UHGV virus genome: UHGV-0068104
Strand: one strand, 5' to 3'
Length of the DNA: 14,368 nucleotides
Source: a virus
A program made the position numbers and the translations under genes. How positions within the stretch are numbered: the stretch's first letter is position 1; the number at the start of each line of letters is the position of its first letter. Positions 5,374 through 11,172 of this stretch are shown here, piece after piece. The notes beneath the pieces were generated by a model that ran no database searches, was not told the DNA's origin, and was given only the letters and a program-made list of their open reading frames with translations.

Positions 5374-5937
5374 GTGCTGACAACGCAAAAACGAAAATTT
5401 GCGCTGGCGCTCATGTCCGGGAAAAACAAAACAGCGTCAGCCATTGCCGCCGGTTATTCGGCGAAGACCGCCAGGGTTAAAGGCTCGCAGCTGGCAAAAG
5501 ATCCGGAGGTGCTTGCGTTTATAGCCCGTAAACAATGCGAGACGGTGGAGGTGGATGAGGTTCCTGTTTACCGGCAGAAAAAATCAGAGCAGGAGGATAA
5601 ACCCCGTCGCCGTGAGGCGGCTGCAATACCACAGCCGGACGAAAACAATCCGGAGATGCCACCGTCCGCGGTGATGTCTCCTGGTATTGAATATATGGAG
5701 GATGGTCTTCCCGATCCGGTGAAAGCCATGGGGCGGATCCTGGTGGAAAACCTCTGCATTGATCCGAAACTGGCACTGGATGCGGCCTGGCGTCTGGCGC
5801 AGTTCACGCATCATAAAAAAGGGGATACCGGGAAAAAATCGGCAAAAGGTGATGCCGCGAAAAAAGCGGCTAACCGTTTTGCGGTGCCACCGCCACCCCG
5901 ACTGGTGGTGAATAACGATAATGAGGGCAACGGATGA
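5374..5937 (+). CDS. Terminase small subunit
   Basis: GTG start at 5374 with GGGAGGAGG upstream; N-terminal HTH-like region (FALALMSGKNKTASAIAAGYSAKTARVKGSQLAKDPEVLAFI) typical of small terminase; charged low-complexity C-terminal tail; stop overlaps TerL start (ATGA). Confidence 0.8.
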   Translation: MLTTQKRKFALALMSGKNKTASAIAAGYSAKTARVKGSQLAKDPEVLAFIARKQCETVEVDEVPVYRQKKSEQEDKPRRREAAAIPQPDENNPEMPPSAVMSPGIEYMEDGLPDPVKAMGRILVENLCIDPKLALDAAWRLAQFTHHKKGDTGKKSAKGDAAKKAANRFAVPPPPRLVVNNDNEGNG

Positions 5938-7595
5938 TACCTGTATGGAGCACAGCCTGCCCGGACTGGGCAGAGCGCCTGAAAAAGGGGCTGTCGATTA
6001 TTCCGGATCCGATTTATCCGGACGAGGCCGCACATGCCCTGGCGATTTTTAAACAACTGCGGATTGTGGATGCACCTGGTAGCCCGACGTTCGGGGAGTC
6101 CTGTGCACCGTGGGTGTTTGACCTGGTGGCGGCCCTGTTTGGCTCCTACGATGCGCAGACCGGTGTACGCCATATCAAGGAAGTTTTTATCCTTATCCCC
6201 AAGAAAAACTCGAAGTCCACGCTGGCCGCGGGGATCATGATGACGGCGCTGTTACTGAACTGGCGGCAGGCCGCGGGTTACACGATTCTGGCCCCGACCG
6301 TGGAGGTGGCAGCCAACGCCTTCAACCCTGCCCGGGATATGGTACGACGTGACGATGATCTGGATGACCTCTGCCAGGTACAGACCCATATCCGGACCAT
6401 CACCCACAGGGTGACAGACACCACCCTGAAGGTGGTGGCAGCCGATCCGAATACGGTGTCCGGTATCAAGTCCGTGGGTACGCTGATTGATGAGTTGTGG
6501 CTGTTTGGCAAGCAGTGCAAGGCGGAGGACATGTTACGTGAAGCCATAGGCGGCCTTGCCTCCCGCCCGGAAGGGTTTGTGGTGTATACGACCACCCAGT
6601 CGAATGAGCCGCCTGCCGGGGTGTTCAGACAGAAACTGCAGTACGCCCGGGATGTGCGTGACGGCAAAATTCATGATCCGCACTTTCTGCCGGTGATTTT
6701 TGAGCATCCGCCGGAGATGGTGGAGAGCGGTGAGCACCTGCTGATGGAAAACCTCGCCATGGTCAATCCGAATCTCGGTTATTCGGTGGATGAGGCGTTT
6801 CTGTACCGGGAGTACCGTAAAGCCCGGGAAGCCGGTGAAGAGACTTTTCGCGGTTTCATGTCAAAACACGCCAATGTGGAAATTGGTCTTGCCCTGCGTT
6901 CTGACCGCTGGGCGGGGGCGGATTTCTGGGAGCAGCAGGGCAGGCGCATCAGTCTGGACGATATTCTGCAGCGTGCTGATGTGGTGACGGTGGGGATTGA
7001 CGGCGGAGGGCTGGATGATCTGCTGGGGATGTATGTGATTGGGCGTGACCGGGAGACCCGCGAATGGCTGGGCTGGGGCCATGCCTGGGCACATGAAACC
7101 GCGGTGGCCAGACGAAAAAGTGAGGCAGCCCGTTTTCAGGATTTTGTTGCCTGTGGGGATATGACCATTGTCCGTCGGGTCGGGGATGACACGGCGGAAG
7201 TGGCGGAGTATGTGCGTCGCATTCATGAGGCTGAGTTACTGGACCATATCGGTATTGACCCGTCAGGCGTGGGGCAGATTCTGGATTCACTGGCGGAAGC
7301 CGGGATCCCCGATGAGAGTGTGGTGGGGATAAGCCAGGGCTGGAAGCTGGGCGGTGCCATTAAAACCACCGAGCGAAAACTGGCTGAAGGGGTACTGGTG
7401 CATGGTGGCCAGCCCCTGATGGCCTGGTGCGTTGGTAATGCCCGTGTGGAGCCCAGAGGTAATGCCATTCTTATCACGAAACAGGCCAGCGGACGGGGAA
7501 AAATTGACCCGCTGATGGCGCTCTTCAATGCGGTCTCCCTGATGTCCCTGAATCCGGAGCCAAAAAAGAAAGAATATGCGGTTTTTTTCATATAA
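5934..7595 (+). CDS. Terminase large subunit (HK97-type)
   Basis: 553-aa ORF with Walker A-like ILIPKKNSKST and ATPase/nuclease architecture of large terminases; translationally coupled to TerS. Confidence 0.9.
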   Translation: MIPVWSTACPDWAERLKKGLSIIPDPIYPDEAAHALAIFKQLRIVDAPGSPTFGESCAPWVFDLVAALFGSYDAQTGVRHIKEVFILIPKKNSKSTLAAGIMMTALLLNWRQAAGYTILAPTVEVAANAFNPARDMVRRDDDLDDLCQVQTHIRTITHRVTDTTLKVVAADPNTVSGIKSVGTLIDELWLFGKQCKAEDMLREAIGGLASRPEGFVVYTTTQSNEPPAGVFRQKLQYARDVRDGKIHDPHFLPVIFEHPPEMVESGEHLLMENLAMVNPNLGYSVDEAFLYREYRKAREAGEETFRGFMSKHANVEIGLALRSDRWAGADFWEQQGRRISLDDILQRADVVTVGIDGGGLDDLLGMYVIGRDRETREWLGWGHAWAHETAVARRKSEAARFQDFVACGDMTIVRRVGDDTAEVAEYVRRIHEAELLDHIGIDPSGVGQILDSLAEAGIPDESVVGISQGWKLGGAIKTTERKLAEGVLVHGGQPLMAWCVGNARVEPRGNAILITKQASGRGKIDPLMALFNAVSLMSLNPEPKKKEYAVFFI

Positions 7596-7620
7596 CCCTG
7601 TTCACCCTGTAACCATCATG

Positions 7621-7646
7621 AACCGCTGCGGCGGTTTTTTTATTTT
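7621..7646 (+). terminator. Hairpin plus T-run between terminase and capsid genes (possible partial terminator/attenuator)
   Basis: AACCGC(7621-7626)/GCGGTT(7631-7636) stem, 4-nt loop, followed by TTTTTATTTT; immediately upstream of AGGAGG RBS for the capsid gene. Confidence 0.45.
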
Positions 7647-7658
7647 CAGGAGGCTGAT

Positions 7659-9596: not shown

Positions 9597-9610
9597 GTCT
9601 GATAAGGAGG

Positions 9611-9632
9611 ACGGGAGGCGTGCGCCTCCCGT
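9611..9632 (+). promoter_or_regulatory. Perfect 22-bp palindrome (RNA hairpin) downstream of capsid gene, not followed by a T-run
   Basis: ACGGGAGGCG (9611-9620) TG CGCCTCCCGT (9623-9632); preceded by a strong AAGGAGG (9604-9610); no downstream U-tract, so not a canonical intrinsic terminator. Confidence 0.5.
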
Positions 9633-9640
9633 AACAGGTT

Positions 9641-9862
9641 ATGGCAAAGATCCGATATCTGCAGGGCACGCATGATGCCCGGGTCGGGGATATCCGTGAT
9701 GTGGCACAGCCGTGTGCGGAGGTGCTGGTTCGCCTGGGAAAGGCGGAGTACATCACGGTGCGACGTCCGGCAGGTCAGAAAAAGAAACGTGATGCGGAGC
9801 ATGGCGAATGTGGAACCTTTTACGGCGAACCCGAAAAAACCAGAAATCAGGACGTGACGTAA
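9641..9862 (+). CDS. Hypothetical small protein between capsid and portal genes (uncertain)
   Basis: 73-aa ORF, non-repetitive composition; no classical SD directly upstream but AAGGAGG lies 30 nt upstream separated by the hairpin; 3' end overlaps the portal start by 55 nt in another frame. Confidence 0.3.
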   Translation: MAKIRYLQGTHDARVGDIRDVAQPCAEVLVRLGKAEYITVRRPAGQKKKRDAEHGECGTFYGEPEKTRNQDVT

Positions 9863-11172
9863 GAGAGGCGGGCTGGACCAGCCTGTTTCAGGCGGTGGCT
9901 GAGCCCTTTTCCGGCGCCTGGCAGCAGGGCGTGAAAGCCGATCCTGAAGCCGTCCTCTCCTTTCATGCGGTGTTTTCTTGCATTTCGCTGATATCCCAGG
10001 ATATCGCCAAAATGCGGCTGCGTCTTATGCAGACGGATGCGCATGGGATACGCAGGGAAACGCGCCGGGGGGATATTGCCCGCCTCTGTCGTCGTCCCAA
10101 CGCCCAGCAGAACCGCATCCAGTTTTTTGAACTGTGGCTGAACGCCAAACTGCGTCACGGCAATACGGTGGTGCTGAAAATCCGTAATGCCCGGGGGCAG
10201 ATCAAAGAACTGCGTATTCTGGACTGGAGCCGGGTTGAACCTCTGGTGGCGGATGACGGCGAGGTGTTCTACCGCATCACGCCGGACCGGAACTGTGGGA
10301 TCACTGAGGCGGTGACGGTGCCTGCCAGGGAAGTGATCCACGACCGGTTTAACTGTTTTTTTCATCCGCTTATAGGATTGCCGCCGGTGTATGCTGCCGG
10401 GCTGGCGGCCACGCAGGGGCATCATATTCAGGCAAATTCAACGTCTTTTTTCAGAAATGGCGGCAGGCCGTCCGGGGTGATTGAGATCCCCGGCAGTATT
10501 ACGGAAGAAAATGCGAAAAAACTGAAGAGCAACTGGGACAGCGGGTATACCGGCGAAAATGCGGGAAAAACGGCCATTCTGAGCAACGGGGCGAAATACA
10601 ACCCCACGACGTTTTCACCAGTGGATGCGCAGACGGTGGAACAACTGAAGATGACCGCTGAAATTGTCTGTTCGGTGTTCCGTGTCCCGGCCTACAAGAT
10701 TGGCGTGGGACAACCGCCTTCCAGTGACAACGTGGAGGCGCTGGAGCAGCAGTATTATTCCCAGTGTCTGCAGACGCTGATTGAGTCCATTGAGCTGTTA
10801 CTGGATGAGGCGCTGGAAACAGGGGAAAACGAGAGCACGGAGTTTGATGTCACCACGCTGCTGAGAATGGACAGTGAGCGACGCATGAAAACGCTGGGGG
10901 ATGCGGTGAAAAATACGCTGCTGACGCCCAATGAGGCTAGGAAGCGTGAGAATCTGCCGCCCCTGGCAGGAGGCGATGCACTGTATCTTCAGCAGCAGAA
11001 CTACAGTCTGGAGGCGCTGTCCCGTCGTGATGCCCGTGAGGATCCGTTCGCGTCTTCCGGGAAAACGTCGTCAGGCACACGCCAGGAGGGCGCGTCTGAC
11101 GGTAATAAGGCCATAAGCGAAACAGAGCGTGATGCGGTGAAGGCGATGTTCAGGGGGATACTGCGAAAATGA
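9808..11172 (+). CDS. Portal protein (HK97 family)
   Basis: 454-aa ORF; ATG 9808 preceded by GGAG with 8-nt spacing; conserved portal blocks (AVFSCISLISQDIAKM..., FFRNGGRPSGVIEIPG, AILSNGAKYNP, AEIVCSVFRVPAYKIGVG) as recalled for HK97-type portals. Confidence 0.85.
   Translation: MWNLLRRTRKNQKSGRDVREAGWTSLFQAVAEPFSGAWQQGVKADPEAVLSFHAVFSCISLISQDIAKMRLRLMQTDAHGIRRETRRGDIARLCRRPNAQQNRIQFFELWLNAKLRHGNTVVLKIRNARGQIKELRILDWSRVEPLVADDGEVFYRITPDRNCGITEAVTVPAREVIHDRFNCFFHPLIGLPPVYAAGLAATQGHHIQANSTSFFRNGGRPSGVIEIPGSITEENAKKLKSNWDSGYTGENAGKTAILSNGAKYNPTTFSPVDAQTVEQLKMTAEIVCSVFRVPAYKIGVGQPPSSDNVEALEQQYYSQCLQTLIESIELLLDEALETGENESTEFDVTTLLRMDSERRMKTLGDAVKNTLLTPNEARKRENLPPLAGGDALYLQQQNYSLEALSRRDAREDPFASSGKTSSGTRQEGASDGNKAISETERDAVKAMFRGILRK

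Follow-up and report, generated by a model that had tools for sequence, protein, structure and literature searches.

Capsid before portal: an HK97-like head module with a fused protease-capsid gene in a lambdoid Escherichia coli prophage

Does an unusual order of head genes in a prophage record a recent rearrangement of that prophage, or is it the normal order of a lineage to which the prophage belongs? The question is raised by a 14,368-nucleotide (nt) stretch of virus genome UHGV-0068104 (here called the window), the + strand of which is the late region of a lambdoid Escherichia coli prophage of the BP-4795, 2851, and YYZ-2008 type. In the window, the gene for the terminase large subunit (TerL) is followed by a gene in which prohead protease and major capsid protein are fused, and the portal gene comes after it. 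This departs from the order in HK97, which was checked in the HK97 record (TerL gp2, portal gp3, protease gp4, and major capsid protein gp5). An earlier reading made from the sequence alone (the sequence-only reading) took the departure to imply a rearranged or mosaic head module and to affect the relative expression of portal and capsid, and it pointed to the spacers at 7596-7658 and 9597-9807 as possible recombination seams. Here, we report that the order very probably did not arise by local rearrangement and is the standard one in the head module of a lineage of HK97-like siphophages that is both old and widespread.

Family searches confirmed the order of TerL, protease-capsid fusion, and portal, all on the + strand (Table 1). 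The 7659-9596 product is a fused protease-capsid protein, with Peptidase_S78 (PF04586) at residues 48-152 (34.7 bits; cut-off, 21), Phage_capsid (PF05065) at residues 386-635 (53 bits), an alignment to TIGR01554 major_cap_HK97 that begins at residue 204 (77 bits; cut-off, 27.5), and phrog_617, “major head protein,” spanning the protein end to end (1e-261). The 9808-11172 product is a portal, as first read: it scored 352 bits against TIGR01537 portal_HK97 (cut-off, 112) and was matched by solved HK97-family portals in the PDB (9lbn, 8cez/8fql, and 6tba; 3e-29 to 3e-12).

Among close relatives, the segment from the terminase small subunit (TerS) through the portal to the repeat protein that follows it was 93-96% identical at the nucleotide level to, and collinear with, BP-4795, 2851, YYZ-2008, the Shiga toxin 2 (Stx2) phage 1717, and many Stx1a- and Stx2c-converting phages; 91 phage records covered at least 80% of the query segment in the same order, with query coverage of 93-100%. 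A probe running from the end of TerL through the capsid gene into the start of the portal gene found this segment unbroken in 1245 of 5426 complete E. coli genomes (~23%), with as many as 7 copies in one genome. A scan of IMG/VR with the fusion protein alone gave only near-identical E. coli prophages, which were used for the seam test. Alignment breakpoints in 81 close relatives fell at ~2200-2400, at 3550-3850, at 4450-4500, and at 11300-11600 inside the repeat open reading frame (ORF), and none of the alignments started or ended at 7596-7658 or 9597-9807. Nor was there a compositional shift at these two spacers, across which GC content was smooth (0.55-0.63); the sole GC step of the window lies at ~4500-4750, upstream of the HNH endonuclease and TerS genes.

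More distant relatives were sampled as 80 diverse loci, retrieved via an alignment of 26 fusion members, in which ORFs were searched iteratively with the window proteins. The loci span Enterobacterales, Pseudomonas, Rhizobiales, Rhodobacterales, Burkholderiales, Xanthomonadales, and metagenome-assembled genomes assigned to other phyla. In this synteny comparison, TerL, capsid, and portal stood in the window's order on one strand in all 71 loci that hold all three genes (71/71). The other nine of the 80 miss one of the three, mostly where a contig ends near the capsid gene; at one locus (L120), no portal was detected despite ~10 kb downstream of the capsid gene. A homologue of the repeat protein followed the portal in 66 of the 71 loci, with Ad1, Hc1, gp10-like, and tail terminator genes after it, so that the connector order is also kept in diverse loci. 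In nine loci, protease and capsid are encoded by two genes that stand where the fusion stands elsewhere, and the idea that the order is a by-product of the fusion was rejected because these split loci retain it. The order is fixed in all relatives examined and is therefore ancestral to a large lineage; PAJU2, FSL SP-016, SOVA965, and others are the same lineage in other hosts. One feature of the sampling weighs against this conclusion, in that a protease-domain pattern was used to pick the 80 loci and their ranking was by resemblance to the fusion, so that any distant relatives with other orders would have been missed.

Over deep time, the genes of the module have not all traveled together. 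TerL identity to the window was bimodal (0.41-0.84 or 0.17-0.24) and did not track capsid identity, and at least four TerL groups with <33% mutual identity were found upstream of the same capsid-portal block. Pairwise identities correlated at 0.71 for capsid and portal, 0.49 for TerL and capsid, and 0.34 for TerL and portal. Among 206 locus pairs with capsid identity of ≥60%, TerL identity was <30% in 58 and portal identity was <40% in none (0/206). Since TerL is discordant and the portal never is, TerS/TerL form an exchangeable unit, and capsid and portal form a co-inherited block. An independent swapping of terminase genes relative to protease and capsid has also been described for phage MD8 (PMC8508860). 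The spacer between capsid and portal ranged from 0 to 7865 bp (median, 280 bp) and is an insertion hot spot, at which recombination does not part capsid from portal. At three loci (L104, L117, and L142), an additional 4-8 kb separates the portal from the capsid hairpin, so insertions are tolerated there. The mosaicism proposed in the sequence-only reading thus stands for the TerL-capsid junction, in deep time only (at least four TerL types), and falls for the capsid-portal junction; as a claim of a locally rearranged module in this element it fails, with no seams and an order common to every relative examined.

Two other explanations of the order were weighed against these data. Recent recombination at the TerL-capsid and capsid-portal spacers could have made the order in this prophage, and several features are in keeping with such an event: the order differs from that of HK97, both spacers bear hairpins and have little or no coding sequence, TerL has been exchanged independently of the capsid over deep time, and the capsid-portal interval varies widely across loci. 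But neither spacer has a GC step, the 81 close relatives lack breakpoints there, capsid and portal are co-inherited without a discordant pair among 206, and the same order recurs in the 71 diverse loci and the 1245 E. coli genomes, which makes a recent origin very improbable. Still less credible, to the point that we set it aside, is an annotation artefact in which a sequencing frameshift has joined two genes into the 645-amino-acid (aa) ORF or in which the 9808-11172 product is not a true portal. Annotations of relatives do list “portal protein” twice, and chimeric ORFs exist in databases (TerL plus capsid in P0001; capsid plus portal in P0003). However, the 645-aa ORF is intact in a cluster with 9916 member sequences and in at least 150 diverged clusters, the portal domain lies entirely inside 9808-11172, and the product that relatives label as a second “portal” (11169-12068) lacks such a domain and falls in another family, phrog_1289. 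An inherited, lineage-wide order remains the reading that we prefer, and the comparison with HK97 can be drawn on that footing.

HK97 has the same families as the window, namely, TerL, portal, S78 protease, delta-domain capsid, Ad1, Hc1, gp10-like, and tail terminator proteins, and has nothing that corresponds to the small ORF of the capsid-portal interval or to the repeat protein encoded after the portal. Its order is TerS, TerL, portal, protease and capsid (as separate genes), Ad1, Hc1, gp10-like, and tail terminator, whereas in the lineage of the window it is TerS, TerL, protease-capsid, small ORF, portal, repeat protein, and Ad1. In the HK97 record, one putative terminator is annotated immediately upstream of gp4 and another immediately downstream of gp5, and hairpins likewise flank the fusion in the window; the simplest description is of a hairpin-flanked protease-capsid cassette that sits on opposite sides of the portal in the two. 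Identity to HK97 was 24% for TerL (gp2; E value, 4e-12) and 27% for the portal (gp3), and 24-29% for the head proteins. The window's connector genes (12065-13535) are in HK97 order (PF05135, PF05521, PF04883, and PF11367) with the major tail protein after them, and their products are 44-73% identical to HK97 gp7, gp8, and gp9. Across 12748-14318, compared with the HK97 locus (L164), identity was 73% for the gp10-like protein and 68% for the major tail (tail tube) protein, against 24-29% for TerL, portal, and protease, which places a mosaic boundary between the head genes and the tail-proximal genes.

Nearer to the window, BP-4795 (Marienburgvirus) has an identical gene table, including the small ORF (ORF57) and the post-portal repeat gene (ORF59), the latter encoding 461 aa in BP-4795 and 299 aa with two 54-aa units in the window. 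Pseudomonas phage PAJU2 (AP009624) has the same order in ORF002-ORF007 (terminase, “prohead protease fused capsid protein,” small ORFs, portal, and a phrog_1289 homologue), with a capsid 48% identical to that of the window; it differs in having two small ORFs between capsid and portal, neither with detectable kinship to the small ORF of the window. The SOVA965 isolate has the same layout as the window.

The fusion itself is one member of an extensive family (1196 clusters at 50% identity, with E values of ≤1e-30), and nearly all of the top 150 clusters (38-57% identity) cover its full length. An AGGAGG Shine-Dalgarno (SD) sequence at 7648-7653 precedes the GTG start of the full-length product at 7659-7661 (SD duplex, -10.3 kcal/mol), and homologues begin at the aligned position with ATG (MTLNRAC...). 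The protease part scored 46.5 against TIGR01543, under the equivalog cut-off of 59. Its Ser110 aligned to Ser114 of HK97 gp4, and its His55 lay one column off gp4 His65, the two gp4 residues being those that we take to be catalytic; His55 and Ser110 were invariant among 26 diverse fusion homologues. A coiled-coil-like region was found at residues 189-210, and the capsid part is, by sequence-based prediction, an HK97-fold major capsid protein with an N-terminal delta (scaffold) domain.

Other single-gene protease-capsid fusions have been reported in Pseudomonas phage MD8 (gp5; PMC8508860), Paracoccus prophages (PMC6536676), and Rhodobacter RcC phages (PMC8601537); gene order is not discussed in these three papers. 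Those of MD8 and the Paracoccus prophages, unlike that of the window, join a ClpP/S14-type protease to a Mu gpT-like capsid. Against NF045541, a prohead protease/major capsid protein fusion model, the window protein scored 53.3 bits (cut-off, 525), with the protease part alone aligning. The MD8, Paracoccus, Rhodobacter RcC, and NF045541 fusions are families separate from that of the window. One homologue (P0264) has the homologous delta-capsid region joined to a ClpP-type protease (PF00574) and not to S78, which implies that one capsid lineage has exchanged its protease domain. In two cluster representatives of ~1090 aa (P0123 and P0132), an AAA ATPase (PF00004) lies N-terminal to a complete protease-capsid fusion; these are genes or gene-calling artefacts.

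Within the fusion, at the boundary of the protease and assembly domains, an in-frame ATG (8235-8237; codon 193) is preceded by AAGGA at 8220-8224, and the nested ORF from there (8235-9596) would encode a 453-aa delta-plus-capsid protein. ATG was present at the aligned codon-193 column in 54 of 59 sequences. The SD duplex at codon 193 had a median of -6.3 kcal/mol, versus -2.5 kcal/mol at 768 other in-frame internal ATGs (Mann-Whitney p = 5e-23, a value uncorrected for kinship of the sequences and so overstating their independence), and duplexes of ≤-4 kcal/mol were found at 94% of codon-193 ATGs versus 26% of the others. The peptide before codon 193 varies by clade (KGK, PEEGD, and PKEG), and every version encodes AAGGA or GGAGG. 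In split relatives, the capsid gene begins exactly at the codon-193 equivalent, with query residue 193 aligned to residue 1 in P0251 and P0263. Because the SD sequence and ATG are conserved, the capsid gene of split relatives starts at this place, and TIGR01554, which models HK97 gp5 from its N terminus, aligns only from residue 204, the pattern suggests two nested products from one ORF, a 645-aa protease-delta-capsid protein and a 453-aa delta-capsid protein. Translation from GTG 7659 would yield the 645-aa protein, which would enter the procapsid as one of the capsid subunits and take the protease along; the internal SD sequence and ATG would yield the 453-aa protein in bulk to build the shell, and after assembly the S78 protease would trim the delta and protease parts, as in HK97.

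Nested protease-scaffold genes are known from lambda (C/Nu3), herpes simplex virus 1 (HSV-1; UL26/UL26.5), and HFTV1 (gp17/gp17.5) (10.64898/2026.09.13.751334). The window resembles them in having an N-terminal protease and a C-terminal assembly domain in one frame with an internal start. It differs in that its putative nested product includes the capsid protein (delta plus HK97 fold) and is not a separate scaffold, and in that its protease is of the S78 type, compared with the lambda or herpes type in the precedents.

How portal output might be held down was considered for the interval between the two genes. A GC-rich hairpin with a 9-bp stem (ACGGGAGGC-GTGC-GCCTCCCGT) lies 15 nt past the capsid stop, and a 74-nt segment of the capsid-portal spacer folds at -26.0 kcal/mol. 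Hairpins with stems of at least 6 bp were found ≤80 nt past the capsid stop in 72 of 78 loci, mostly 5-25 nt downstream. The 70 nt past this stop were more structured than shuffled sequences (median z, -2.2), compared with medians of -0.6 after TerL, -0.4 after the portal, +0.3 after the homologue of the 299-aa ORF, and 0.0 after Ad1. The hairpin before the capsid gene also occurs in Enterobacterales and Pseudomonas relatives and is restricted to lineages with a ~60-nt spacer; as a clade-wide trait it was rejected (the TerL median above is from 75 loci).

The small ORF, which belongs to phrog_829 (no assigned function), overlaps the portal start by 55 nt. A homologue of it occupies the capsid-portal interval in 44 of 77 loci, and in 27 of 43 the stop codon of the homologue is adjacent to, or overlaps, the start codon of the portal gene (as TGATG in Enterobacterales), so that in this lineage the small ORF may often be translationally coupled to the portal. 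In the window, the TGA of TGATG reads GAA, and the small ORF continues 55 nt into the portal gene. The portal start (MWN...) is conserved in relatives, and its SD duplex is weak in the window (-5.8 kcal/mol, versus -10.3 at the fusion start). The head genes would be transcribed as part of a late operon downstream of the Q-type antiterminator gene; a stable post-capsid hairpin, by 3'-end protection or partial termination, could then keep portal low relative to capsid, and the weak portal SD sequence together with dependence on translation of the small ORF could lower portal output further. Hairpin, SD sequence, and small ORF are together a plausible way to hold portal far below capsid, and gene order as such would not set the portal-to-capsid ratio.

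The gene after the portal is annotated “portal protein” in relatives, and PAJU2 ORF007 likewise belongs to phrog_1289. In Pfam, NCBIfam, and PDB searches, the 11169-12068 product matched no portal family and had no Pfam domain above the cut-off; the label, carried by thousands of database entries, is probably wrong. In the protein, two 54-aa tandem repeats (11333-11452 and 11495-11614) lie between an N-terminal helix and a C-terminal beta domain; the 162-nt repeat was missed by Tandem Repeats Finder and found by a separate repeat search. Copy number varies, and proteins of relatives range from 245 to 556 aa. The C-terminal domain (~110 aa) is conserved in all diverse loci and has weak, sub-threshold similarity to CBM_5_12, and distant homologues carry collagen-like GxDGxDG runs. 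An AlphaFold2 model of the 299-aa protein (14-sequence alignment) had a mean predicted local distance difference test (pLDDT) score of 48.9 and was confident in the N-terminal helix only. That the protein is a trimeric head or neck fiber is a guess. In a prophage of Candidatus Pantoea communis (L095, 12184-15915), portal and phrog_1289 repeat protein form one 1243-aa ORF, and the composite phrog_2271 profile (859 positions) suggests that portal-repeat fusions or frameshifted calls recur.

The fuller picture is of a permuted HK97-like module in which the fusion has two starts, giving a minor protease-delta-capsid and an abundant delta-capsid protein, and which also encodes a small protein coupled to the portal and a fiber protein of variable length, collagen-like in part, that is mislabeled as portal. 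We judge this picture to be evenly balanced between right and wrong, and several points weigh against it or against the proposed control of the portal. The internal SD sequence of the window (AAGGA, 10 nt from the ATG) is weaker and farther from the start than in many relatives, and the case for two products, like that for what the hairpins do, is drawn from sequence conservation. A T run follows only 15 of the 72 post-capsid hairpins, most of which are therefore not classical terminators, and Q-modified polymerase would read through terminators anyway. The small ORF of the window has no stop at the portal start and may therefore not be coupled as its counterparts in other genera are. Alternatively, the fusion may yield only the 645-aa polyprotein, from every subunit of which the protease cleaves itself off, with the internal ATG and SD sequence a relic or a constraint of the protein sequence. 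This is unlikely, though it deserves serious thought: there is one ORF with a strong SD sequence at 7648-7653, fusions of the MD8 and Paracoccus types are described simply as single genes (PMC8508860 and PMC6536676), and by our estimate 415 protease domains would still fit a T=7 procapsid. On the other side, sequences that share only 38-50% identity retain the ATG and a purine tract resembling an SD sequence while the encoded peptide changes between clades, whereas a relic would decay, and the position of the ATG is exactly that of the real capsid-gene start in split relatives.

Table 1. Features of the window, with supporting matches or location
Feature	Position	Strand	Match or remark
Q-like antiterminator	369-857	+	Upstream of head genes
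Holin, endolysin, Rz spanin	Downstream of Q-like gene	+	
Rha-like regulator and second spanin-like ORF	Between lysis genes and HNH gene	+	
HNH endonuclease	4719-5084	+	Upstream neighbor of TerS
Terminase small subunit (TerS)	5374-5937	+	PF03592 1.3e-08; phrog_641 1.8e-68
TerL, HK97/Terminase_1 type	5934-7595	+	PF03354 ATPase and PF20441 nuclease; phrog_9 2e-146
Terminator-like hairpin	7620-7647	+	Stem 7620-7626/7631-7637, then T run; TerL-capsid spacer; terminator scan
Fused protease-capsid gene, 645 aa	7659-9596	+	PF04586, PF05065, TIGR01554, phrog_617
Fusion: S78 protease	Residues ~1-155		Followed by linker
Fusion: delta/scaffold-like coiled coil	Residues ~193-300		
Fusion: HK97-fold capsid	Residues ~300-645		
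GC-rich 9-bp hairpin	9611-9632	+	Past capsid stop; no T run
Small ORF, 73 aa	9641-9862	+	phrog_829 3e-39
Portal, HK97 family, 454 aa	9808-11172	+	PF04860 5e-81; TIGR01537; phrog_2271
Post-portal repeat protein, 299 aa	11169-12068	+	phrog_1289 3e-159
Ad1	12065-12391	+	
Hc1	12401-12751	+	
gp10-like	12748-13194	+	
Tail terminator	13191-13535	+	

Around the head genes, the TerS stop overlaps the TerL start, and a 27-nt tandem repeat (AAAAGGGGATACCGCGAAAAAAGCGGC) occurs in two copies at 5817-5870, at the TerS 3' end just before the TerL start. The HNH endonuclease gene adjoining TerS resembles the arrangement of HNH-dependent cos packaging. The two spanin-like ORFs of the window lie at 2163-2600 and 4004-4345. 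The gap from the Q-like gene to the holin gene is only ~500 bp and holds no stx-sized ORF, leaving no space for stx. An Rfam scan of the whole window gave no family reaching its gathering score.

The gene order is already known at the annotation level, having been visible for years in public records since BP-4795 and PAJU2. A literature search within one limited library of papers for the capsid-before-portal order, an internal start in S78-capsid fusions, and post-capsid hairpins found no explicit statement of any of them and yielded general fusion reports and the nested protease-scaffold precedent only. The window itself is an ordinary copy of a very common, annotated prophage head module, and the internal start, the post-capsid hairpin, and the two uncharacterized core genes are modest leads for the lineage and not for this locus specifically. 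For annotation by synteny, the portal should not be presumed to follow TerL. The HK97-type head module has two stable gene orders, with the protease-capsid cassette and the hairpins on either side of it acting as the movable unit, and the conserved internal start would be a simple, testable answer to how fused genes avoid a 1:1 stoichiometry of protease to capsid.

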